A stretch of 64,000 nucleotides of DNA, taken from IMG/VR virus record IMGVR_UViG_3300044700_000221. One strand, 5' to 3'. Numbering within the stretch: the stretch's first letter is position 1; the number at the start of each line of letters is the position of its first letter. The notes below the pieces were generated by a model. The model saw only the letters and a list, made by a program, of their open reading frames with translations, made no database searches and was not told where the DNA came from. Below, piece by piece: positions 1 through 51,389 of the stretch. The position numbers and the translations under genes were made by a program. Source of the DNA: an uncultured virus (IMG/VR IMGVR_UViG_3300044700_000221). Lineage: Duplodnaviria > Heunggongvirae > Uroviricota > Caudoviricetes.

Positions 1-1011
1 CACGCATCCCGGAGCTGCCTTGATGATCGCCCACAAGTCGCTATCACTCAGACTCATTGAGCCTGATTGATCGATGAGGACAACGCCACCGAGACCCCTG
101 GCACGACGGTCAAAGACACGTCGCTCAGGATCAGTGAGCATACGGTTGATACGTCGTGGGTCACGGCCACTGTTAGTAGCAATGCGCTTGCGACCAAGTC
201 GACCTGCTACACGTTCAGTGAGCGGAAGCTTGTCAAGCATCAATGGTGCAAACCCAGTATCGCCACCCTCGTCAGGTACTTCTTCACCACCAGGGAACTC
301 ATCTAGAGGGAACTCACCCTTATGGCGTAGTAGACCAGCTAGCTGTCGGGCAAGCCCAAGAGTGCCAGTCATATACCCAAAAGGAAGCTCAACTTCCTCC
401 TCATTGATATCTACCTCGTACGGCCTTGTACTATCGACCGAATCGGTGTAGCCCTTGTCCCAACTACGCTTGACAACTTTGATGGTCTTGCGCACATTCA
501 ATGCATGCGCAAGCATCGCTGGGTTAGCGCCGTCTTTGACAGCCTTACGGATACCAGCCATGAATGGCCTGATCGCACCAGTGCCCTCCATTGCCGCGAT
601 TGCGTAAGTCACGTCATTGAAGTTATTGGACTTGGCCACGATTTCACCCTCACGCTTCTCGGACCCATCGTAAAGATAGGACATATCGAAGCCTGCTTTG
701 TTGGCAATGTAGTTGACACGGAACTCTTCACATGTAGTGGCGAGATCCGTGTTGATGCCAAGTGATCGATGACTGTCAGGAACTACCGGACCAAGTGCAG
801 GGCTAACCTTGGCGTGCACCATTTCATGTGCACGGATTGCCCGTGATGTGTCGTCCTCGCCAAGAGGAACACGCATGCGTCGACCGTCGATATCGGTCCA
901 TGCGTTACCCCTCGTTGGGCGACCATCCTCAATTTTCCAGGGGGTTGGTTCCCCCTGGAAAATGTCCTCCCTGGACAACCACTCTGGGTATGGGGCGTGA
1001 GTTTTTGTCAT
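1..1011 (-). CDS. Metallopeptidase-like (HExxH) + VWA-domain protein, partner of the MoxR-type ATPase; partial, runs off the window start
   Basis: Not in the ORF track. Both ends translated by hand from ATG 1011 (TGATG overlap with the ATPase stop): MTKTHAPYPEWLSRED...RAIRAHEMVHAK...GGVVLIDQSGSMSLSD. HExxH and the MIDAS DxSxS motif are in the same frame. Confidence 0.8.
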   Translation of the reverse strand, partial: MTKTHAPYPEWLSREDIFQGEPTPWKIEDGRPTRGNAWTDIDGRRMRVPLGEDDTSRAIRAHEMVHAKVSPALGPVVPDSHRSLGINTDLATTCEEFRVNYIANKAGFDMSYLYDGSEKREGEIVAKSNNFNDVTYAIAAMEGTGAIRPFMAGIRKAVKDGANPAMLAHALNVRKTIKVVKRSWDKGYTDSVDSTRPYEVDINEEEVELPFGYMTGTLGLARQLAGLLRHKGEFPLDEFPGGEEVPDEGGDTGFAPLMLDKLPLTERVAGRLGRKRIATNSGRDPRRINRMLTDPERRVFDRRARGLGGVVLIDQSGSMSLSDSDLWAIIKAAPGCV

Positions 1012-1775
1012 CACTCTCCAATGTTGTTGACACGAATGGTGTCCACGATGGACATCCATGAATTGGGGAACAGCAGCTTGGCTGCTTCATTCAACGCTTC
1101 GTCAGCGTCAAGCCCAGTTGATAACAAGTGACTGCGCAACTTGTCAAACGCAGCCCACCCACGTAGTGAGGTGCGTCGCTCACCCTCAAGGTCTGCTGAC
1201 AAAGCAGCAGGCACACGCAGATCTTCTGACAAGAATGTCAGAGCATCTGGGTGGGGGGTGTTGATGCGCAACGCTACAGGGAAACGATCCTTGAGGGCTG
1301 TCGGCAATTCACGCATGTCCTCGATATTGGTTGTCATCACCGCACTAAAGCCTTGACGGGGCTTCATTTCAGTGCCACGTTCTGGGTGCAACCAAGTTGC
1401 ACTTGCTTCGCTGTCAAGCATGCTGAGCAATAGTGACAGTACGTCACCATTGGCACGGTCGATTTCGTCAACGACTAGACGACCGCCCTGGATGCCGTTG
1501 CCTTCCCAGGCACGGACCGCGGAACCATCGTGCCAATGCCAAGCACCACTAGCACTGGGCATGTAGTGACCAACGACGTCTGATGACGTCATTTCTTCCG
1601 TACAGATAAGACGGAAGGCACCCCCAAGGGTGTCGCCGTAGTTAAGGCCAGCAAAGGTTTTGCCGGTTCCTGGGGGCCCAAACAAGATGATCTTGTCGAG
1701 GCCAGCCTCAAGAGCGAGCTTGACGTCTTGCCAGCACTTAGGCAGTTTGTTGTTGTTGTCTGTTGCCATTTTCAT
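1011..1775 (-). CDS. MoxR/CbbQ/CobS-like AAA+ ATPase
   Basis: Walker A GPPGTGKT, Walker B LVVDEIDR, ALKDRF Arg finger. Start moved to ATG 1775 (or 1769), behind GAAAGGGG. Confidence 0.88.
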   Translation of the reverse strand: MKMATDNNNKLPKCWQDVKLALEAGLDKIILFGPPGTGKTFAGLNYGDTLGGAFRLICTEEMTSSDVVGHYMPSASGAWHWHDGSAVRAWEGNGIQGGRLVVDEIDRANGDVLSLLLSMLDSEASATWLHPERGTEMKPRQGFSAVMTTNIEDMRELPTALKDRFPVALRINTPHPDALTFLSEDLRVPAALSADLEGERRTSLRGWAAFDKLRSHLLSTGLDADEALNEAAKLLFPNSWMSIVDTIRVNNIGE

Positions 1776-1806
1776 ATCCCCTTTCAAGGGTTTGGGTGGA
1801 TAACAA

Positions 1807-1841
1807 TGGACGACGGCACGGTTGCACCGTACCGCCGTCCA
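1807..1841 (-). repeat. Leader hairpin repeat, copy 1 (TGGAC..GG...AACCGTG...CGTCCA)
   Basis: Minus strand TGGACGGCGGTACGGT-GCA-ACCGTGCCGTCGTCCA pairs fully using two G-U pairs. Related copies at 3458-3492 and 5141-5175. Confidence 0.75.
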
Positions 1842-1860
1842 GAAAGAACTACTAAGGAAT

Positions 1861-2202
1861 CTACGGTGCAGATTCCTCCAGCCCAAGGTGGGCTGGTACA
1901 TCGATGATCTGGTTTGTAAACCAGGGCCACAAGTCTGGCAACACTAATGTCAGCCAGCCTGTCAAGTCATCAAGGGATTCAAACACCTTCCCCTTGACGT
2001 CTACTTTCACACCGACAACGTCGGCGTCCGGGATGTCGGACATGTCGTGACCGTATTGCTCACGAAATGCTTCGTGAACTTGTGAAGGCAGATCTTCTAC
2101 CTTCATAAGAAGATGCTTCGCAGCAATTACTGTCCAGCCTGTCATTGGGTGAAACCCTAACTGCACCATTGGGGGTGGTACGTCTGGCATGTCATCTTCC
2201 AT
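1861..2202 (-). CDS. Hypothetical protein
   Basis: 113-aa ORF with AGGAGG RBS, same strand as neighbours. Confidence 0.75.
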   Translation of the reverse strand: MEDDMPDVPPPMVQLGFHPMTGWTVIAAKHLLMKVEDLPSQVHEAFREQYGHDMSDIPDADVVGVKVDVKGKVFESLDDLTGWLTLVLPDLWPWFTNQIIDVPAHLGLEESAP

Positions 2203-2209
2203 TAGTCCT

Positions 2210-2355
2210 CCTGATGGAATTGGGGGGCCTTACGGTCCCTTATGGGTGGTTTAACTTTTCTATCCGCTTTACACGGACAGAAGGAACCGCAACCACGGTC
2301 GCGGGTACCTACTTCGGGGCCGTGGGCTTTCACCCACGACCACGACTTTCGGATT
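2210..2355 (-). ncRNA. Putative structured intergenic RNA (run of hairpins)
   Basis: GGTCGTGGG-TGAAAG-CCCACGGCC, CCGCGAC-CGTG-GTTGCGG and TTCTGTCCG-TGTAAAG-CGGATAGAA; G-U pairs work on the minus strand. Confidence 0.5.
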
Positions 2356-2362
2356 GTTCTAC

Positions 2363-2746
2363 TCACTCTTCCTCCTCAATGTCACTGAAACACCATGCGT
2401 AACGACAGCACCTATCTTCGAGAGGGACGTTGTCATCGTAGGCAGGGTGCCCGCCAACAAATTGTTGGCGCACATGCTCAGGGAATAATTCCAAGAGCGT
2501 GATCACACAGTCATGACACAAGTGCCATGACCGTTCTTCCTGTGTGTAGGGCCACGACTCGTTGAACATGCCGTAGCCTCCTAACCATTGAAGGCTGATG
2601 CCGTTTTCGACCTGCTCTAAGCAGACCTCTCGGTCTGTGCTGTCGTCGTAGACAAACTTGTCCTCTCCCCTGTACCTAGGCCACTCCTCTGGGGCCATTG
2701 GAGTTTCGCATTTGGTACACCGAAGCCAATCTGCTTTAGTGAGCAT
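2363..2746 (-). CDS. Hypothetical protein, possibly zinc-binding (CTKC ... CHDC)
   Basis: 127-aa ORF, two CxxC motifs, GGGAGGGG RBS, TAATG overlap. Confidence 0.75.
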   Translation of the reverse strand: MLTKADWLRCTKCETPMAPEEWPRYRGEDKFVYDDSTDREVCLEQVENGISLQWLGGYGMFNESWPYTQEERSWHLCHDCVITLLELFPEHVRQQFVGGHPAYDDNVPLEDRCCRYAWCFSDIEEEE

Positions 2747-2943
2747 TACCCCTCCCTCTTACGAGAGAGGAGTTCTGCAACTCTGCCCATCCTGCGGGCA
2801 TGGCGTAGATTCTCAAGAATCTCCAGCTGAAGTCGATGACCGAAGTCATCAACTCCAGACCATCGCCAGATTGGGAGGTCGTTTGAGAGCACACCCTCGA
2901 AATAGTTTTCGAGGAAGTTCTCTTCGTTGTTGTTGTCTTGCAT
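2746..2943 (-). CDS. Hypothetical protein
   Basis: ORF MQDNNNEENF..., AAGGGG RBS, translationally coupled to the next gene. Confidence 0.65.
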   Translation of the reverse strand: MQDNNNEENFLENYFEGVLSNDLPIWRWSGVDDFGHRLQLEILENLRHARRMGRVAELLSRKREG

Positions 2944-3021
2944 TTTTTGTACCCCCTTGGGTAGAAGCCCCACCTGATTGGTGGGGACACTTTGTGCTCA
3001 ATGGCTGAGTATCGTTGTTGA

Positions 3022-3393
3022 TCAGTCCGCTAACAGACTGATCAAAGTACTGGCCTGGTTTGCTAACAACCAGGCTTCCTTTGCGGCTTCCTTAGCCCGC
3101 AAAAGATCATTCAGGGCTACCAGCCGAGCTGGATCGTCGCCCTGTGAAAAGATGATCTTGTCGCTAGCTCGAAGCCCTAAGGCCTTGAGACCAGCGACAA
3201 CTCTGTGCTTATATAGATTGTGCTCATTGTGAGCACCCTCTACTATCCGCACGAGCACGGATTGCTGACGTGTCAGGGGGAGGTTACTAAACTCATCCCC
3301 TAACTCTTTTGCAAATTGGTCCATCAAAATGGCCATCCGGTTTTGAACCCGGTCGTCCATTGCTGGACTTGATTGCTTTTTTTTCTTACCCAT
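3022..3393 (-). CDS. Hypothetical protein (stem-enclosed gene)
   Basis: 123-aa ORF, GAAAGGGG RBS, flanked by inverted repeat 2996-3013/3432-3449. Confidence 0.8.
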   Translation of the reverse strand: MGKKKKQSSPAMDDRVQNRMAILMDQFAKELGDEFSNLPLTRQQSVLVRIVEGAHNEHNLYKHRVVAGLKALGLRASDKIIFSQGDDPARLVALNDLLRAKEAAKEAWLLANQASTLISLLAD

Positions 3394-3457
3394 AACAATT
3401 CCCCTTTCTAGGGATTAGTTGAATTTGTTATGACACTCAGCCATTGAGCGATTTGTT

Positions 3458-3492
3458 TGGACGGTGACACGGTTGCAACGGCGACCAGTCAA
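3458..3492 (-). repeat. Leader hairpin repeat, copy 2
   Basis: Plus strand TGGACGGTGACACGGTTGCAACGGCGACCAGTCAA; imperfect stem. Confidence 0.6.
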
Positions 3493-3510
3493 ACCGCCCG
3501 AGAAAGGTAG

Positions 3511-3631
3511 TGAGGCTGAGGGGAATCGAACCCCTGCGACACTTTCGTGATCCTGCCTACTGGCTTTCGGTTAGTTAATAACCAAGCCGCGGACGCGATA
3601 CTTTAGAGTTTGTGCGCTACCATTCAGCCTC
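3511..3631 (-). ncRNA. tRNA-like RNA (perfect acceptor stem and T arm, non-tRNA core), 121 nt
   Basis: GAGGCTG/CAGCCTC-A acceptor stem and AGGGG-TTCGATT-CCCCT T arm; no canonical D or anticodon arm. Confidence 0.75.
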
Positions 3632-3636
3632 TTGGG

Positions 3637-3668
3637 TGGGTCAGGTTTTACGACATGACCCAGGTCGT
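3637..3668 (-). ncRNA. Putative H-type pseudoknot
   Basis: Stem 1 ACGAC/GTCGT; loop TGGGTCA pairs with downstream TGACCCA across an AAAACC linker. Confidence 0.5.
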
Positions 3669-3783
3669 TGAGTTAGTAATCTTCAAGGCTCACTCACACA
3701 GCCAATACGCAGGCATTACCAACCTGTCATACCTTCGCCGGCATGCTAAGCGACAGATTTACGTCATGTCAGGACGCTCTCCG

Positions 3784-3999
3784 TCAGTCGAACGGAGAGA
3801 ATCTTGGTGACTCTTCGTCACAGCGGAATATGAAATCCGCTGCGTAGAGTTTGTCAATGCTGTCGCATTGACGTATGGTCTTGATTAGACCCTTTCGGGT
3901 CTCACGCAGCAATTGCCGCTCAAACTTCCGAGCTAAGCGTTGTTCCCGCTTGTATTCACGCACCTGGCGGTACGTGGTTGCAACCGACATTGTTTCCAT
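3784..3999 (-). CDS. Hypothetical basic protein
   Basis: 71-aa ORF, GGAGGT RBS. Confidence 0.7.
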   Translation of the reverse strand: METMSVATTYRQVREYKREQRLARKFERQLLRETRKGLIKTIRQCDSIDKLYAADFIFRCDEESPRFSPFD

Positions 4000-4002
4000 G
4001 AT

Positions 4003-4230
4003 TTACCTCCCCGCTTTCGCGGCTTCGATTTGGGCCTTGATCTCGGCGGTCATTTCCTTTACCTGCGTTGTTGCTTGAACAACCAACTTACTGGCTGTAC
4101 TCAACGCTCGGCTTAGGACTTCGTGATCCTCATTAGTCAAGTGGGTCATTAGCCCACGTTCCACGAAAATCCGCAAAGCGGATGTTACGTGGGTGACTTC
4201 TTGAGCAGTGCAAACTAGTTGTACTTCCAT
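4003..4230 (-). CDS. Hypothetical protein
   Basis: 75-aa ORF, GAGGT RBS; shares a 16-nt start context with the next gene. Confidence 0.75.
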   Translation of the reverse strand: MEVQLVCTAQEVTHVTSALRIFVERGLMTHLTNEDHEVLSRALSTASKLVVQATTQVKEMTAEIKAQIEAAKAGR

Positions 4231-4267
4231 GATTTACCTCTTCCTCCAAACCCCCACTGGGCGTGGG

Positions 4268-4340
4268 TGCTCTCGGCAGGATTCGAACCTGCGGCCTACG
4301 GTTTAGGAAACCGTCGCTCTATCCGCTGAGCCACGAGAGC
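4268..4340 (-). tRNA. tRNA-Arg(CCU)
   Basis: Cloverleaf: GCTCTCG/CGAGAGC acceptor, GCTC/GAGC D stem, ACGGT-TTCCTAA-ACCGT anticodon arm, GCAGG-TTCGAAT-CCTGC T arm. Confidence 0.95.
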
Positions 4341-4382
4341 GGGTATTTACTCAATGGTCGAACGCCCCTTACTGCGGGGTTG

Positions 4383-4733
4383 TTATTGAGCTTCCTCAAA
4401 GCTGTCAAGGCGATGAATGTACTCGTCTGTTTCCTGTACTAGCTGTAGAAATTCCTTTTGAAATTTCCCTGCTAAAACTTCGAACACGGCTGGCTTCATG
4501 ATTTCCATGAGCCACTCTTCCGTAGGGTATGTTTCGTACCCATACGCTGCATTGCCGAAACGTCGAACGAGGTGATACATTCCTCGCTCGACATCGTCGA
4601 GTGTCACATCACGCCCCGTGACGGGGCATACTCGGTTGTGGGTTCGTGCCCACTTCTCGAGTAGTTTGTGACTGTCGACGATCTTTTCACGTTGATTTAG
4701 ATCATCCGTGATGTACTTCTTTGGCTTTTCCAT
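4383..4733 (-). CDS. Hypothetical protein (stem-enclosed gene)
   Basis: 116-aa ORF, GAAAGGGG RBS, inverted repeat 4346-4365/4767-4786. Confidence 0.8.
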   Translation of the reverse strand: MEKPKKYITDDLNQREKIVDSHKLLEKWARTHNRVCPVTGRDVTLDDVERGMYHLVRRFGNAAYGYETYPTEEWLMEIMKPAVFEVLAGKFQKEFLQLVQETDEYIHRLDSFEEAQ

Positions 4734-4822
4734 ATTGTCCCCTTTCTAGGACTGGAGCAGCAGGAAGCGTTCGACCATTGGGTAAAAAGGTTGCCAATGA
4801 TTAGGTGGGCCGACCAAGTGGA

Positions 4823-5071
4823 TTACTTATAAATGTGGGCGCCGATTGACCAAGTTGATGAGTATATCTTTCTGATACCCAACATGACCATGGACTCTGC
4901 GCCCGTTTCAAGGTTACGAATTCTCAGTTGGTGAGAGCGCATGCGCCCAAACTCTTCTGAATACCCAACTGCAACAACCTTGCCAAAGACGCCTGGGAAG
5001 TCCAGAACATCTCCAACTTGTGGTTTAGACGGTTCTGTATACACATCAACGTCTTGAAACAAATATGCCAT
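4823..5071 (-). CDS. Hypothetical protein, possibly small beta-barrel (stem-enclosed gene)
   Basis: 82-aa ORF, GAGGT RBS, inverted repeat 4794-4815/5106-5130. Confidence 0.75.
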   Translation of the reverse strand: MAYLFQDVDVYTEPSKPQVGDVLDFPGVFGKVVAVGYSEEFGRMRSHQLRIRNLETGAESMVMLGIRKIYSSTWSIGAHIYK

Positions 5072-5140
5072 AACTACCTCGTTTCTGCCCTAAGGGGCAA
5101 TCAGAGGTCGGTTATCCACCTAACCATTGGGCGATTAGGT

Positions 5141-5175
5141 TGGACGGCTGCACGGTTACGCTGTGCGCCAGTCCA
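5141..5175 (-). repeat. Leader hairpin repeat, copy 3
   Basis: Minus strand TGGACTGGCGCAC-AGCGTAACC-GTGCAGCCGTCCA. Confidence 0.7.
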
Positions 5176-5255
5176 GAACGGTCGATGTCAGGACGTGCTC
5201 GGTTTGTTCTCCAAACCGTGAGGCCTAAGCCTCGTTATGGGGCTTTATGCCCCTA

Positions 5256-5411
5256 TCACTTGGCCTTGACGACCAAGTGGTTGAAGTCGACGCGGTTGTT
5301 CGTCAAACGAGCAACCTTGCTAAGTGCCACGACGGCCATGATGCGGCTTTCACCGCTGGCCTTGATGTGCTTGCCCCAAGGTGTGGGGCAAGATGCCTTG
5401 TACTTCTTCAT
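5256..5411 (-). CDS. Small basic hypothetical protein (51 aa)
   Basis: Not in the track; hand-translated MKKYKASCPTPWGKHIKASGESRIMAVVALSKVARLTNNRVDFNHLVVKAK, GAAAGGGG RBS. Confidence 0.7.
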   Translation of the reverse strand: MKKYKASCPTPWGKHIKASGESRIMAVVALSKVARLTNNRVDFNHLVVKAK

Positions 5412-5523
5412 AGTGTGTTCCCCTTTCTAAAGGGATAAGGAACACGCCCTGCCATCGGGGAGAAATGTTTCCCAACGGTTAGGCACACCTTGCTGGACAC
5501 CAACTAGTTGTTGTTGTTGTTGG

Positions 5524-5754
5524 TCAGTACGGTTTCTGGTTTGAATTCAGATAGATTGACGTCGTGATGGCGCCGTTTAACGCCGGGCTAGCAATGTCGT
5601 TAAGGTAGTAAAACACCTTATTCTTCAAGGCTGCTGCTTCGCCTTCGCTCAATTTATCGATGCCCTTGAGCATTTCGAGGGAATGTTCAATTTCTCGAAT
5701 TGCTTGTTTAAGCATCTTTTTGAGCTCTTTCTTCTTCTCCACTGTTACTCCCAT
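5524..5754 (-). CDS. Hypothetical helical protein (stem-enclosed gene)
   Basis: Start reset to MGVTVEKKK behind GAAAGAGG; inverted repeat 5451-5501/5770-5818. Confidence 0.75.
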   Translation of the reverse strand: MGVTVEKKKELKKMLKQAIREIEHSLEMLKGIDKLSEGEAAALKNKVFYYLNDIASPALNGAITTSIYLNSNQKPY

Positions 5755-5873
5755 GATGCACCTCTTTCCGGTGCCCAGCAAGCAATGCCTAACCATTGGG
5801 GAGAAAGGGACCGATAGCGCTGGCATGGGGGATGCCTGCTGCTTTGATGGGGTCGGTCGACTCCCAAGAGTGT

Positions 5874-6054
5874 GATGGACAGCGCCCCAGTTGCCCAAGG
5901 CGCTGTCCATCGGTACCCAATGGCGAGGGGTCATTCGATACTCATTTTCTAAGCGTCGACATTCTTAGCGTTAGACGCTCCCCTTGCGGGCATCGGCTTT
6001 CACCGATGATGGGTTCTCTTTGCGCCCGAAGGCAGCCCATCGTAACGAATGACC
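5874..6054 (-). ncRNA. Putative multibranch structured RNA plus 13-bp hairpin
   Basis: Closing helix GGTCATTCG/CGAATGACC with four internal hairpins carrying cUUCGg, GAAA and GCAA loops on the minus strand. Confidence 0.6.
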
Positions 6055-6176
6055 TGAGACAGATATACTCCTGAGTGGGCACTTGGTGTGCTAAGACGGT
6101 GGGATAGCGTCCGATGCCCTTCAGAGGGCGCTTCGACACGTGGCTGGGATACTAAGGACAGAGGGGCTCAATCAAG

Positions 6177-6725
6177 TCACTTGGAGACGACCGCCTGAAG
6201 GGCGTTCAAAACGGTCGTCATCTGATCAACCGTCAAGACGCCCAAGCGGACATCTTTCAGGAAGGTATTCACGTGGCGCTCAACGAGGACCGATGACTCG
6301 GTCTTCTTTGGCTCCGGTTTGCCGACAAGCGAAAGCTTGCGAAGCAATGACTCACGGGTTGCCCACTTTGTGAGGTTGCCCTCCGCAGTAAGGGTCAAGT
6401 AGTCACCGATGATGGTTTTGGTGGCCTCGGCGTTCTTGATGAACGCTTCACGCACCGTGCCATCGAGGTCCCAGAGGGTTGCCCCATCGGAAGGAAGAGC
6501 CATCGCCTTAGCGAACAAGACCACATAGTAGCCTCGGCCCTTCTCCTCGCCCAAGAGGAAATCAGCTTCGTCGGCCGAGAGACCGACAACCACCTTCTTC
6601 CATTCGGGATCGGTGACCACGGCATCGAAAGCAGCGATGCTCTCGACAACCGTACCGTGAGCGGTGAGGTACGCATTGATAGCGTCACCGCTGGTGAATT
6701 GGACTTGCATTTGTTGTGTACTCAT
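6177..6725 (-). CDS. Hypothetical protein, first gene of the leftward arm (stem-enclosed)
   Basis: Start reset to MSTQQMQ behind GAAAGGGG; long nested inverted repeats on both sides. Confidence 0.85.
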   Translation of the reverse strand: MSTQQMQVQFTSGDAINAYLTAHGTVVESIAAFDAVVTDPEWKKVVVGLSADEADFLLGEEKGRGYYVVLFAKAMALPSDGATLWDLDGTVREAFIKNAEATKTIIGDYLTLTAEGNLTKWATRESLLRKLSLVGKPEPKKTESSVLVERHVNTFLKDVRLGVLTVDQMTTVLNALQAVVSK

Positions 6726-7081
6726 GATGTCCCCTTTCAAAGGATCAATGTTACTTATGGAAGTAACTTTCACGAGCCCATATCCTAAGCGTAACCAGCC
6801 CCTACCCCTAGGTAGTATCTACAGCCTAAGCCATAGACCTATTCCTAGGGGATCAGAACCGTGCCGAAGCGCCCTATGAGGGGCACCGAACTGACCGACA
6901 CACGACCACACTCAGGGGACTAGCAGCGGGTAGCGCCACTCTGCTAGACTATGCCCCGCACCACCGAAGCAGTGAGGAGTCGTAGGAGTTACCCCCTACA
7001 TCAACCGCTTGAGGCGCACCTAGCGGAGGCAGGACCCAGCCCCCGATAACTGCCTAATTGCTGAATAGCCCTATTCTGAAC

Positions 7082-7150
7082 TGTGGATAACCTCATTGCC
7101 CTGTGGATAACTGGGGGGTTACCTGTGGATAACTGGGCACCTGTGGATAA
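7082..7150 (-). promoter_or_regulatory. Cluster of four perfect DnaA boxes (TTATCCACA)
   Basis: TGTGGATAA at 7082, 7102, 7124 and 7142, all in the same orientation, at the strand switch. Confidence 0.85.
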
Positions 7151-7188
7151 GGTAACATAGACCTATTCCAGAACTAAGGAGCTACACC

Positions 7189-7617
7189 ATGGCCAATGAA
7201 CCAGATCGCCCAACCGTTGATTGGAATCGTCCTAATGCAGAACCCCAACGTCCAACTACCACATGGAGACGCTCGGATACTACGCCAACCCCAGGCAAAC
7301 CAGATACTAGTCGTCACCCAGGGCGTCAAGTTAGCCGACTAGCTCATTTACTGGCTACCCATGCACAAAACACTTTTACAGCTCAAAAAGACAGCTTTAC
7401 ACCAGAAGGCGAGCAACAAGGGCTTGGTTTCTATCGTGAGAGTAGAGACTTCAAAAAAAAGATGGGTTATGATGATCTTGGTGAGACATTTATAGAACCG
7501 GCAATAAGAGCTTCTTTTAAGAATAGACATAATAAAGATTACAGTTACGCAGAGTTATATGGTCCTGACGTCCACCCTGACAAATACTTCTCCAGTGAAT
7601 TTACATTTAAACCCTAA
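7189..7617 (+). CDS. Hypothetical protein
   Basis: 142-aa ORF, AAGGAG RBS; contains DTSRHPGRQV. Confidence 0.8.
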   Translation: MANEPDRPTVDWNRPNAEPQRPTTTWRRSDTTPTPGKPDTSRHPGRQVSRLAHLLATHAQNTFTAQKDSFTPEGEQQGLGFYRESRDFKKKMGYDDLGETFIEPAIRASFKNRHNKDYSYAELYGPDVHPDKYFSSEFTFKP

Positions 7618-7682
7618 ACAGTTTGGCCCAACCGGCATATGGATAATGTAATATAGTTTTATTCTTAACTAAGGAGTTAATC

Positions 7683-7907
7683 ATGGCAACAGATCATAGA
7701 GGCAAACCTTTACACGCAGGTAAGCGTACTGCTGATGAACAGTATCAACAAATGACTTTTGCACCACCCAAATGGAGCGATGCGCCTGGTCGAGTTTGGG
7801 ATGGTAGCGGAGATTTAATTTGGGGTCACCCTGATGATACACGCTCACCAAATAACCCCCCTCCTGCGCAAGCAAGACCACAAGACCTATTCTCTTTGCA
7901 TGACTGA
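7683..7907 (+). CDS. Hypothetical protein, N-terminal paralog of 9901-10113
   Basis: AAGGAG RBS; MATDHRGKPLHAGKRTADE. Confidence 0.8.
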   Translation: MATDHRGKPLHAGKRTADEQYQQMTFAPPKWSDAPGRVWDGSGDLIWGHPDDTRSPNNPPPAQARPQDLFSLHD

Positions 7908-7921
7908 CCTCTTTTCCCTGT

Positions 7922-8377
7922 ATGACTCTTAACCCTAGACAGTTCAACAACCAACTACAGATGTTGATGACCGGTAAAGAGTTAATTAACTACATCAACA
8001 CTCCTAGGCACACAAAGTCAGAATTTAACGAGGATGTTGACTCATCTAACTATTGGTCAAGGAAACTTCAAGAAGCTAAGGCCACACCGGAGCAACACAA
8101 TGTTGAAGTAGATGGCAAGATGCAATGGACAGTCCCTCATGGTTCCGGTATCTACGACAGCGTCAAAGCTCATGGGTACTCTCCTGAAGGTGAGACTATT
8201 GAGTTACGTCATACATCAGACGGTAAGGTGCAACAGCGTGATGGAGCTCACCGTATAGCTGCAGCTGCTGCGTTAGAAGATGCAGGTGGAGACCCTATCT
8301 ACTTCCCAGTAGAGCACACCCTTACTGACACCCTTTGGGGAGAACGCGGTAGCACTAACGGTGGAACCGTTAAGTAA
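7922..8377 (+). CDS. ParB/Srx-like domain protein with MTLNPxQF leader
   Basis: IYDSVKAHGY...IEL...DGAHRIAAA resembles the ParB N-terminal DGxHR motif. Confidence 0.65.
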   Translation: MTLNPRQFNNQLQMLMTGKELINYINTPRHTKSEFNEDVDSSNYWSRKLQEAKATPEQHNVEVDGKMQWTVPHGSGIYDSVKAHGYSPEGETIELRHTSDGKVQQRDGAHRIAAAAALEDAGGDPIYFPVEHTLTDTLWGERGSTNGGTVK

Positions 8378-8412
8378 CACCTTTGGCAAGTATATCGGTG
8401 GTTGTGTAAACT

Positions 8413-8424
8413 TGGTACAGTCAG
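8413..8424 (+). promoter_or_regulatory. Putative promoter element TGGTACAGTCAG
   Basis: Identical intergenic 12-mer at 25213-25224; contains an extended -10-like TGnTAnnnT. Confidence 0.45.
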
Positions 8425-8462
8425 GTGGCGTAAAAATTCGCCGTTAGATTGAGGAGAGCGTT

Positions 8463-10485: not shown

Positions 10486-10701
10486 ATGGACTTTAATGAA
10501 TGGTTAAAATACGGAATGGACCACAACTGGTGTGGCCCAGCAGTGTGTGAGACCCATGATGGGTTGCCTATGAGCAATGAAGAGGACGAAGAGTTCTGGG
10601 AAAGTGACCCTTGCATTCACATTTTGCGACTTTATGAGAGTGAAGAGCATGGAAAAGCAGTTGAAGCTTCACATTCTGCATCAGTTTGGCGTAAATTATA
10701 A
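10486..10701 (+). CDS. Small Cys/His hypothetical protein
   Basis: AAGGAG RBS; WCGPAVCETHDG...DPCIH. Confidence 0.75.
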   Translation: MDFNEWLKYGMDHNWCGPAVCETHDGLPMSNEEDEEFWESDPCIHILRLYESEEHGKAVEASHSASVWRKL

Positions 10702-11784
10702 CGAATTTAGGTACTCAGCCATCTTTTTACCCGTGGCTTCGAGTGAAAAATGAGTTTCAATGTGTTCTTTAGCGTGCTGACCCATTGTTTTTGCTGAATT
10801 TTGATGCTCGTACACGTATCTCATGGCTTGAGAGGCCGCTGTTATGTCAACTTCAGCCCATTTTGCGGTTGGAGGGTACACATCATTACCCATCCCAACG
10901 TCTATGTAGTCCCATGGCATCAAAAGTGACACATAATCGTTCATGAACTCGGTATTACCAGAGTAATTTGTAGCAATTACTGGTTTTCCAAGAGCCATTG
11001 CTTCTGCAATTGACAATCCGAGCCCCTCAGACCTGTGCAATGACACATAACAGTCAGTTATGTTAAGTAGAGCTGCCAATTTAGTGGGTTCTAACACTTT
11101 ATCTATTATTTTTATGTCAGTTCTACCCTCTGTAAGTGCCTGGAGTTCTTTTAGTTTGCTGTAATGCTTATCTCCATTAGCACTTTTAATTACGAGTACT
11201 GGACCTTCGTTTGGTTTAAAGGCTTTTTTAAAAGCGTTAATAATTGCTGCTGGATTTTTCCTATTTACCATAGAATAAAAACTAAAAGTAAAGAAAAACA
11301 TGTAGCGATCTGGCTCAACCCCAATGTCAATTTTATTTATTTCAGTATCGTACTCGGGTGCCAGTAACGGTAACTGCATTTTGTTAACCTTAACGGTATT
11401 AGGAGCATACTTATCAATAGCTTTAGTAATAAATTCAGTAGGAGACCACACTTCGTTAACGTAATTAAATCCCATATGCATAGAAGGCGGGAAATACTCA
11501 AGTTCCCAAAACCACTGACCAATAACATATTTATTTTTTAAGTAATCTCGTAAATGGTAAGTGGTGTGGGTAAGCTCATTCGAGTTAACCGACATAATAA
11601 CTTTGTTGTATTTCCACTCTTTGTCAATTGTAAATGGTACATTGTTTTTTGAAACAGCAGAAGCTACCCCTATGGTTGATACAGGGTAATCTACTGATCT
11701 AAGGGCCCTTACGAGCAAACGGCCAGCTTCGCCAAGTCCACTCTCAGTGTTCAGGTACCCAAACACGTTAACTCCATCTGACAT
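10696..11784 (-). CDS. Glycosyltransferase, GT-B fold (family 4-like)
   Basis: RKNP...YVSLHRSEGLGLSIAEAMALGKPVIATNYSGNTEF (ExxGxxxxEA signature). Confidence 0.9.
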   Translation of the reverse strand: MSDGVNVFGYLNTESGLGEAGRLLVRALRSVDYPVSTIGVASAVSKNNVPFTIDKEWKYNKVIMSVNSNELTHTTYHLRDYLKNKYVIGQWFWELEYFPPSMHMGFNYVNEVWSPTEFITKAIDKYAPNTVKVNKMQLPLLAPEYDTEINKIDIGVEPDRYMFFFTFSFYSMVNRKNPAAIINAFKKAFKPNEGPVLVIKSANGDKHYSKLKELQALTEGRTDIKIIDKVLEPTKLAALLNITDCYVSLHRSEGLGLSIAEAMALGKPVIATNYSGNTEFMNDYVSLLMPWDYIDVGMGNDVYPPTAKWAEVDITAASQAMRYVYEHQNSAKTMGQHAKEHIETHFSLEATGKKMAEYLNSL

Positions 11785-19513: not shown

Positions 19514-20362
19514 ATGGCTGTTAGAATTCAATTTAGACGCGGTACTGGTACTGAGTGGTATGACAACAACCCAGTTCTTGCCGTTGGCGAAATGGGTTAT
19601 GTTACTGAAAAATATCCAACTTCAGGTACTGTTCTATACCCAAAAGGTGGTATTAAGTTTGGTGATGGCACTACCGCCTGGAGATCTCTTGATTTTGCTG
19701 CAGCCGGTGACATCTTTGAAGTTAATGCTGGAAATGGCCTAACAGGTGGTGCAAACACTGGAGCTGCAACTCTAGCTATTGACACAACAAAAGTATTTAG
19801 TACATCTTCAATTACTGCTAAAGGTGACCTTTTGGTAGGTAGTGGAGCTAACACTTTTGTATCCGCAACTGTTGGAAGTAACTTTTCAGTATTGACTGCG
19901 AACTCAGCCTCTGCTGGAGGTATTGCGTGGGATAGTACTCTTACCAGAGTTTCTTTAAAATCACCGTTAGAAGCATGGAGTATTGTAAATGCAGCTCCAT
20001 CATCTACAACTGGTGGTGTGCGTAACCTAGATGTTGTTACTGCTAGCGCATGGTATACGACCATTGCTGCTACCCACACATGGACACTGAACATTAGAGG
20101 AGATGGCTCTACCTCTTTAAATAGCCTTCTTCAAACTAACCAAAGTATTACAGTTTCGTTTGCAGCAAATATGGGGGCAACCGGCTATGTGCAATCAAGT
20201 CTTACAATTGATGGCGGGAGTGCTCAAACCATTCAATGGCAAAACGCTCTAGCCCCTTCGGCAAACACAAGCGCAATTGATGTGTACACTTACACTATTG
20301 TTAAAACAGCTGACGCTACCTATACCGTTTTTGGTTCACGCACTAAATTTGATTCGGTGTAA
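19514..20362 (+). CDS. Minor tail protein with Mtd-N-like N-terminus
   Basis: IQFRRGT..EW..NNPVLAVGEMG...KFGDGTTAW. Confidence 0.75.
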   Translation: MAVRIQFRRGTGTEWYDNNPVLAVGEMGYVTEKYPTSGTVLYPKGGIKFGDGTTAWRSLDFAAAGDIFEVNAGNGLTGGANTGAATLAIDTTKVFSTSSITAKGDLLVGSGANTFVSATVGSNFSVLTANSASAGGIAWDSTLTRVSLKSPLEAWSIVNAAPSSTTGGVRNLDVVTASAWYTTIAATHTWTLNIRGDGSTSLNSLLQTNQSITVSFAANMGATGYVQSSLTIDGGSAQTIQWQNALAPSANTSAIDVYTYTIVKTADATYTVFGSRTKFDSV

Positions 20363-50775: not shown

Positions 50776-51210
50776 TTACTTAGTTGAGGCCTTGAGTTGC
50801 CAAGACCACTTTTGGTGGTGGTCAATTCGATCAGCAAGGAAGTTCATAATTCCCTGCTCGTCAGCTTTTTCAGCTTCGGTAAAAGCCTTTTTCAAAGTTT
50901 TAATTACAGCTTCATTTGCTGTAAGCAAAGACTTTGCCATCGCTTTCGGGTTTGGTTGAACATCCTTGAAGTCTAAAGTACGGAGATCCAAGAACTTCTG
51001 AAGACTAAAGGGAGCATAATCATCAAGTTTTCGAATGTTCTCCGCAATCGGATCAATAGACCCGTATGCGTCTTCGTAGATGTCAGAAAACAAAGCATGG
51101 TACTGACTGAAGTCAGAGCCTTCTACATTCCAGTGGTACCCATGAGCCATGAAATAAAAGGTAACAACGTCCGAGACAAGTACCTTAAGTGACTTAACAA
51201 GTGATTCCAT
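50776..51210 (-). CDS. dps: Dps-family ferritin-like protein
   Basis: HGYHWNVEGSDFSQYHALF..IYE.....DPIAENIR; C-terminal HQKWSWQL. Confidence 0.92.
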   Translation of the reverse strand: MESLVKSLKVLVSDVVTFYFMAHGYHWNVEGSDFSQYHALFSDIYEDAYGSIDPIAENIRKLDDYAPFSLQKFLDLRTLDFKDVQPNPKAMAKSLLTANEAVIKTLKKAFTEAEKADEQGIMNFLADRIDHHQKWSWQLKASTK

Positions 51211-51389
51211 TACATCTCCTAAAAGCAAAAGCCAGAGGCTATCAAAGTTTATCCGATAACCCCTGGCTTTGCCTGAAAGGAGCCGGAAAGGAGAACCACC
51301 AACTTGTCCAGCGGTGTAAACCTACCACACAAATTTAAAGAAAGCAACCTGTTGCAAGAAAGAGTTTTGGGGTGTACAGTTCTCGACCC

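Follow-up and report, generated by a model that had tools for sequence, protein, structure and literature searches.

The 64,000-nucleotide (nt) stretch of the IMG/VR record IMGVR_UViG_3300044700_000221 that was analysed here (the window) comprises most of the genome of an uncultured freshwater myovirus-type phage. As seen in a scan of the window proteins, its plus-strand genes encode terminase, an SPP1-type portal, capsid, sheath, tube and baseplate proteins, as well as DnaB, a DnaC/IstB-like loader, a primase, an SNF2 helicase, PolA and RecA. Positions 1-7200 form a divergent minus-strand cluster of small genes without Pfam/PHROG families that carries an AAA_5 ATPase gene at its end and whose start adjoins four boxes of the sequence TTATCCACA, which we take to be the DnaA-box consensus. 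The G+C content of this early cluster (window 1-8000) amounts to 51-53% vs 42-47% in the remaining phage. Within it, at least six early ORFan genes (the enclosed genes g1-g5 and g51) are each surrounded by two complementary arms that are specific to the respective unit and form a closing helix around the gene. Here we describe these helices, their specificity, their recurrence around unrelated genes in related phages and their swapping together with the gene as whole units. The helices are probably functional. The repeats do not result from an assembly artefact, since independent assemblies of other samples (runs X3, X4 and X6) contain the identical region with zero differences, for example in form of a single 2735-nt contig spanning 4788-7522.

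All six units are co-oriented on the minus strand, and their core arms are spaced 264-719 nt apart. At the head of the array lies a leader (7028-7076, minus strand) that is conserved in the window and in two relatives, L001 and L002 (L numbers denote relatives' loci). The g5 unit comprises a 5' strand (6771-6917; core at 6860-6891) and a 3' strand (6069-6195) that overlaps the last codons of the open reading frame (ORF; 6177-6725, 182 aa), and its closing helix has a predicted energy of -126 kcal/mol. The g5 product belongs to no Pfam/PHROG family, yet it is a real conserved protein with eight metagenomic orthologues of 68-98% identity; its predicted structure has a predicted local distance difference test (pLDDT) score of 43. 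In the g4 unit, the 5' strand (5761-5828) consists of outer 'socket' helices, the core CCCAATGGTT and a unit-specific inner arm, followed by the ORF (5524-5754, 76 aa) with the ribosome-binding site (RBS) GGAAAGAGG and by the 3' strand (5442-5508) of a gapped helix. The g51 ORF (5256-5411, 51 aa) lies between strands at 5440-5456 and 5184-5200. The g3 ORF (4823-5071, 82 aa) is enclosed by a 5' strand at 5105-5149, with the core CCAATGGTTAGGTGG at 5116-5130, and by a 3' strand at 4773-4816, which again form a gapped helix. The 5' strand of the g2 unit (4757-4786) begins 7 nt past the g3 3' strand, precedes the g2 ORF (4383-4733, 116 aa) and pairs with 4346-4375; tRNA-Arg(CCT) (4266-4340) begins another 5 nt past this 3' strand. 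Both of these spacings had been given correctly in the preliminary description of the region. Finally, the g1 ORF (3022-3393, 123 aa) is flanked by 3432-3449 and 2996-3013.

The units also share smaller elements. If the gapped helices are taken as reference, 6-45 nt separate the 5' strand from the start codon, and in g1, g2 and g3 the stop codon is followed by the 3' strand after 6-8 nt. Each gene has a small CCCT..AGGG hairpin that covers its Shine-Dalgarno sequence. Four of the five stems first described end on the outside with CAATGG in the 5' strand and a CCATTG-like motif in the 3' strand, a feature that had escaped attention before. In addition, a mini-ORF of 15 codons (5408-5457, minus strand; read by eye) starts inside the g4 3' arm region, and its TGA overlaps the ATG of g51 (ATGA), which suggests a possible translational coupling.

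The five flank pairs originally reported, i.e. all except that of g51, lie where they had been placed and proved to be the top five long-range inverted repeats of the minus-strand early cluster. Scored without gaps (Watson-Crick pair +2, G-U pair +1, mismatch -3), they reach 51 (g5, 6891-6860/6140-6109), 51 (g4), 47 (g2), 35 (g1) and 29 (g3) when read as minus-strand RNA, and 43, 43, 36 and 29 in the plus-strand RNA reading. Among 300 dinucleotide shuffles of 1-7300, none contained a score of at least 47, five contained one of at least 35 and 106 one of at least 29; five or more stems of at least 29 together occurred in 0/300. The idea that shuffled sequence might yield similar inverted repeats thus fails for the strongest stems and for the set of five, but it holds for g3, whose ungapped core is not significant alone because its score was reached in 106/300 shuffles. 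Elsewhere in the window (other 56.7 kb), the best stem score is at most 37. If gaps are allowed, the closing helices become much larger than the minimal arms of the preliminary description, with 83 Watson-Crick and 12 G-U pairs in g5 (95 pairs), 40 and 7 in g4 (47 pairs), 23 and 3 in g3, 25 and 3 in g2, as well as 17 and 1 in g1. A near-continuous duplex of at least 20 bp (about two turns) is therewith present in g5, g4, g2 and g3 (gapped), and g1 has 18 bp. Upon folding of single units, all five helices appeared in the minimum free energy (MFE) structure with mean pair probabilities of 0.82-0.99, and they returned when the whole 3.9-kb array was folded. It was the MFE structure of the whole array in which the 16-pair helix around the sixth gene, g51, surfaced. 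The duplex of its flanks has -32.2 kcal/mol vs -16.7 (standard deviation, sd, 3.5) for shuffles, with 0/300 as good.

The arms had also been proposed to differ between genes and to be complementary within each pair. This is borne out by duplex energies of -35 to -121 kcal/mol for cognate and -11 to -45 kcal/mol for non-cognate combinations, with one exception, the g3 5' arm with the g4 3' arm, which have a common core. Compared in register, inner arms are 96% paired in cognate and 41% paired in non-cognate combinations, values that are descriptive because the stems were picked for pairing; the inner arms of different units are 30% alike. In a cruder and noisy test with RNAduplex on 90-nt flanks (non-cognate background -43, sd 7), the only flank pairs to stand out were those of g4, which no non-cognate pair equalled (0/132), and of g2 (2/132), and g5 (6/132), g3 (16/132) and g1 (19/132) were not outstanding. 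Six further minus-strand genes, i.e. g75, g71, g68, g127, g113 and the ATPase gene, are not enclosed.

Relatives of the region were collected with the ATPase as anchor, which yielded 134 loci from viral, metagenome and genome collections; no homologue of g1-g5 was found in them. GenBank phages gave tRNA matches alone and no close relatives, and scans of viral contigs with the g5, g2 and g1 proteins and with a 20-nt junction probe gave no match. A 22-nt probe matched L001, L002 and a duplicate of L002 among the viral contigs and nothing else, and genome contigs contributed only relatives of at most 58% identity, in metagenome-assembled genomes (MAGs) of Actinomycetota. Two lineages are syntenic with the window, namely L001 (=L037) and L002 (=L003, L116), and share with it the DnaA-box leader, the GGAC hairpin described below, a tRNA-like element and tRNA-Arg. 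In both, the first two slots after the leader are occupied by two very strong stems with cores of 30-35 bp and 0-3 mismatches, which reach 59-80 pairs when extended, and one further stem-enclosed unit was found in L038. Altogether, the extended stems of L001, L002 and L038 have 53-80 pairs and lie 3.8-7 sd below shuffles. The genes inside the L001 and L002 stems are unrelated to those of the window and to each other; for the site-1 genes, BLASTP returned E values of 1.7, 51 and 0.002 (the last for a 40-aa N-terminal stretch only) and hhalign a probability of <1%. As to the question raised earlier, whether different ORFs occupy the same stems, L001 and L002 bear equally strong stems around unrelated genes in the same slots as the window. 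Four units, i.e. window g3, site 2 of L001, site 2 of L002 and the unit of L038, have in common the 5' core and the initiation region (GGGCAGAAAYGAGTA...ATG, 31-34 nt after the arm), and their inner arms and genes are all different. Related phages thus display the same layout with unrelated genes and arms. The first 26 kb of Streptomyces phage LuckySocke contain no such stems, the best score of 31 being at shuffle level.

Beyond recurrence, the comparison of close strains directly supports the earlier notion of exchangeable gene cassettes, since in three cases (g4 in the window and run X8, and sites 1 and 2 in L001 and L002) stem and gene are replaced as one unit. For most of their length, L001 and L002 share 90-96% identity, and their alignment breaks at exactly two places, L001 2422-3506 vs L002 5446-6488 and L001 3621-4185 vs L002 6603-7367. 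At the second break, homology stops 2 nt before the L001 5' arm (3623) and returns 10 nt past the 3' arm (4175). Run X8 contains a strain about 90-95% identical to the window, whose g4 unit has given way to 402 other letters; the contig in question matches the window in flanks of 341 and 531 nt. It resembles the window up to and including CCCAATGGTT (to 5791) and again from 5464 onwards, so the X8 strain keeps the outer 'socket' helices and replaces the inner helix together with the gene. The breakpoints of the exchanges fall at the short conserved outer cores. Among related phages, units are indeed swapped in their entirety, through recombination at the short conserved cores and the flanks. 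Among the differences of X8 listed (40 of 246), g75 is missing, with 233 nt replaced by TCT, and among the matches listed there is no cover over g2-g3. A joint 4358->5103 in X8 was not taken as an empty site. Separately from the enclosed units, a 71-aa gene (3784-3999, minus strand) is 82% identical to its counterpart in L002 (7107-7319) although the ATPases are 61% identical; the DNA similarity spans RBS to stop, i.e. a gene-sized mosaic piece without stems.

Several structured elements lie between the units. The G+C-rich GGAC...GTCCA hairpin directly precedes several 5' strands as well as the ATPase gene. On the minus strand of the window, it is found upstream of the g4 unit (5877-5908; kept in L001 and L002 with compensatory changes), directly upstream of the g3 5' strand (5142-5174) and, as a member of the same family, directly upstream of the g1 5' strand (3459-3491). 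Seven copies from four genomes adopt the same fold with 14 pairs, five of them with changes on both sides. The tRNA-like element inside the array, of about 120 nt (window 3508-3631, minus strand; L001 4447-4563; L002 7749-7871), has acceptor and T arms with a long insertion and is 79-84% conserved among the three phages. It was not called by ARAGORN and scores 26.7, 32.2 and 28.8 bits (window, L001, L002) with the Rfam model of transfer-messenger RNA (tmRNA), whose gathering score is 47. A second tRNA-like sequence (L001 4179-4270; L002 7361-7455), with a GGTTCGATTCC T-loop and a CCACC end, is 99% identical between both relatives and absent from the window. This element lies 3-4 nt past the L001 stem, counted from the end of its 3' arm.

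How might such units work? We give roughly an even chance to a function at the RNA level, in which the helices define, insulate and protect the ends of single-gene messages, probably with RNase III. The units follow one another in head-to-tail order, interspersed with tRNA and tRNA-like genes, within a single minus-strand cluster starting beside the DnaA-box region. We infer that they are transcribed together, that the helices form in vivo and are cleaved, and that the messages may thereby be stabilised. In a long early transcript, the two arms of a unit would pair over 18 to 95 positions into a closing helix that folds the gene as an insulated domain and provides a double-stranded substrate or clamp. 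Host RNase III, together with RNase P cutting at the tRNA and tRNA-like genes that adjoin the helices, could then release single-gene messages, both ends of which would stay paired and protected. A circularisation of these messages, as suggested in the preliminary description, found no support. Equally balanced is our judgement that the units represent self-contained early-gene cassettes, each with a core at the outer end, an inner arm specific to the unit, a small hairpin at the RBS, an ORFan gene and finally the matching second arm. With a helix of its own, a unit would be able to function at any site of insertion. RNA is favoured because the units are co-oriented, the start sites are spared, tRNA and tRNA-like genes adjoin, and the duplex of the sense strand exceeds that of the antisense strand in stability in 10/10 stems, in 5/5 extended helices and in g51. 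A scan for sigma-70 promoters found 6 vs 7.8 expected, i.e. no excess, and none in the arms; this lack and the co-orientation are only consistent with co-transcription in one precursor.

The closest parallel is found in bacterial rRNA operons, in which leader-trailer helices are processed by RNase III. There, too, a precursor of several units has each product enclosed by the long-range pairing of its 5' with its 3' flank, the units are separated by tRNA genes and a local hairpin stands ahead of the 5' strand. In contrast, the enclosed products are small protein-coding ORFan genes here, the helices are unit-specific and swap with the gene, and no boxA was found. For comparison, the layout of the rrn leader is boxB-boxA-boxC (PMC2724277). 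The units further resemble the early region of T7 in that a polycistronic early RNA of the phage would be divided into individual messages whose ends are structured. The RNase III sites of the T7 early transcript are local hairpins between genes, whereas the helices described here span whole genes.

A number of points weigh against this RNA-level function. Shuffles readily match the g3 ungapped core, and the g1 helix is short. The preliminary description had argued for RNA from a predominance of G-U wobbles with a single C-A exception (4351/4781); g2 actually holds two C-A mismatches, and although the sense duplex is indeed the more stable one, the wobble count is weak, as an extension treating G-U and A-C alike gave a ratio of 26:15 (p=0.12). 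A strand-biased mutation pattern could also yield the sense bias. In two RNA-labelled runs, the fraction of the region's words was 0.00 of those sampled. E. coli-type boxA, which may not be the host's, matched 88 times vs 75 expected and never before the arms, the best match nearby being 9/12 at 7058-7069. For the host, and thereby for its RNases and promoters, MAG binning and the terminase, which is 45% identical to that of the nearest cultured relatives (Streptomyces phages), give only a hint of Actinomycetota. Finally, similar inverted repeats in distant relatives are promoter/leader modules in both orientations, and the g4 5' arm of the window resembles such a module in inverted form.

This last observation leads to an explanation without any role for RNA, namely that the arms are boundary repeats, either conserved promoter/leader (start-associated) modules in inverted copy or scars left by gene insertion. 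Such repeats could persist since recombination between them shuffles modules, as with the promoter early stem-loops (PeSLs) of T4-type phages. PeSLs are shared direct repeats with a sigma-70 promoter and a local terminator hairpin that border ORFan cassettes and mediate replacements (PMC2839356, PMC4122927). The likeness lies in repeated regulatory motifs next to ORFan genes of a hyperplastic early region and in insertions, deletions and replacements between close relatives that break at these motifs, just as the swaps described above break at conserved cores. Distant phages with 49-59% identical ATPases do contain many equally scoring 'stems' that are repeated promoter/leader modules in both orientations. 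In L015, L017, L020, L042, L057, L059 and L065, a CACCTACTA-N-GAAAGGGACA-N-ATG leader accounts for both arms, the 5' arm as the reverse complement of the leader of an opposite-strand gene and the 3' arm as that leader before the next gene, and the arms of L004, L046 and L065 hold TTGAC(A/T)-17-TATAAT-like promoters. These modules, overlooked in the preliminary description, are ordinary and akin to PeSLs and to the start-associated sequences (SAS) of Cluster K mycobacteriophages. The latter and their extended form (ESAS; 17-bp repeats with 4-13-bp spacers) are conserved motifs at the translation starts of non-structural actinobacteriophage genes, some with adjacent inverted repeats, but the ESAS repeats are local and shared instead of gene-enclosing (PMC3203893). 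Since the g4 5' arm, when reversed, resembles the CACCTACTA-N-GAAAGGGACA-N-ATG leader, the cores of the window may descend from such modules. Yet, the arms of the window, L001, L002 and L038 tightly enclose co-oriented genes, with no opposite-strand gene evident, and complementarity runs 20-85 pairs past the cores of about 10 nt into sequence unique to each unit. Moreover, the arms lack a sigma-70 promoter, and they are inverted and unit-specific, neither direct nor shared, in which they differ from PeSLs as described in those articles. We thus regard boundary repeats as a rather improbable account of the units, whose unit-specific inner arms around co-oriented genes are not explained by promoter/leader modules.

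The same breakpoints could alternatively mark structure-specific recombination sites at the DNA level. Each unit would then fold, in single-stranded or cruciform DNA, into a very large hairpin like attC whose loop contains the gene, and some recombinase or nuclease acting at the conserved outer cores would capture and exchange units. In integrons, attC is a local palindrome of 57-141 bp behind the gene and requires the IntI integrase. Integron cassettes likewise form arrays of promoterless single-gene units, and as in attC, sequence is kept only in short inverse cores at the outer ends, the rest keeping pairing and not sequence. Whole-unit exchange with breakpoints at the cores would follow as well, and the strand bias fits the folding of one DNA strand just as it fits RNA. 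However, the palindrome encloses the gene here, and arms 300-800 nt apart make poor DNA hairpins. No strong local palindrome is found between units, where the junction folds weakly (-11.2 kcal/mol as RNA, -5.1 as DNA). The 75 window proteins scanned include no integrase or transposase, and RecA is the only recombinase among them, with the proviso that the window may be a partial genome. Contig-level DNA runs, which cannot reveal rare forms, contain no circle or inversion joints, and ordinary homologous recombination suffices for the swaps because the flanks are 92-99% identical. We therefore hold DNA-level sites to be unlikely. A further role, and to our minds a very improbable one, would be translational control without cleavage, the closing helix and the RBS hairpin gating ribosome access or coupling neighbouring units. 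The CCCT..AGGG-type hairpin present in every unit speaks for it, as do the extended L001 and L002 helices that reach into the initiation region, the 3' arms that lie within reach of the terminating ribosome and, as read by eye, the mini-ORF ending on the g51 start; the main helices, on the other hand, leave RBS and start codon free. Terminal-inverted-repeat transposons or miniature inverted-repeat transposable elements were discarded, with inner arms merely 30% alike and no flanking direct repeat in the flanks examined by eye.

Some further features of the phage deserve mention. The TTATCCACA boxes are four direct copies at 7081-7150 (minus strand), between the divergent early clusters, in a region with 71% conservation in both L001 and L002; DnaA-box-like repeats are also present in L004, L031 and L114. 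Together with the genes for DnaB, the DnaC/IstB-like loader and primase, they suggest a phage origin that recruits host DnaA. Two non-coding islands, 7625-7739 and 8401-8450, are 85% and 92% identical to L001/L002; they are situated where plus-strand genes have their 5' ends and contain an invariant stretch of 29 nt with a small hairpin. Elsewhere, the window encodes a protein with an Mtd_N (major tropism determinant N-terminal) domain (19514-20362, plus strand), a ferritin-like protein (50776-51228, minus strand) and a GT4 glycosyltransferase that also matches a 'conflict systems' GT4 model (10696-11784, minus strand). As to the host group, the loci L120-L134 (ATPase at most 58% identical) come from MAGs labelled Actinomycetota, Ilumatobacteraceae and Acidimicrobiia; two labelled Bifidobacterium breve and one labelled as a Poseidoniaceae archaeon probably reflect binning errors.

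The layout had not been recognised from any phage protein genes when it was first noted, and literature searches, which covered few subscription journals, gave no description of it either: they returned PeSLs, SAS/ESAS and rrn antitermination, and nothing on protein genes inside long-range helices in a phage early operon. Taken together, the findings suggest a modular expression and exchange of accessory genes. A more far-reaching and doubtful extension is that stem-closed cassettes constitute a general, undescribed gene-capture system of lytic phages, in which the helix serves as both expression signal and recombination handle. Such a helix might make a gene expressible in any early operon while inverse cores recombine into standard 'sockets', which would functionally amount to an integron without integrase, a speculative equation. 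Host-takeover and counter-defence ORFans have their main reservoir in the early regions of phages, and it is poorly understood how these are acquired and become expressible. If a private closing helix indeed defines each message, this would explain how unrelated genes dropped into an operon are predictably expressed, provide a sequence signature for spotting exchangeable accessory genes in metagenomes and extend an rRNA-style processing logic to protein-coding genes. It would also suggest a natural design for the insulation of genes in synthetic operons.

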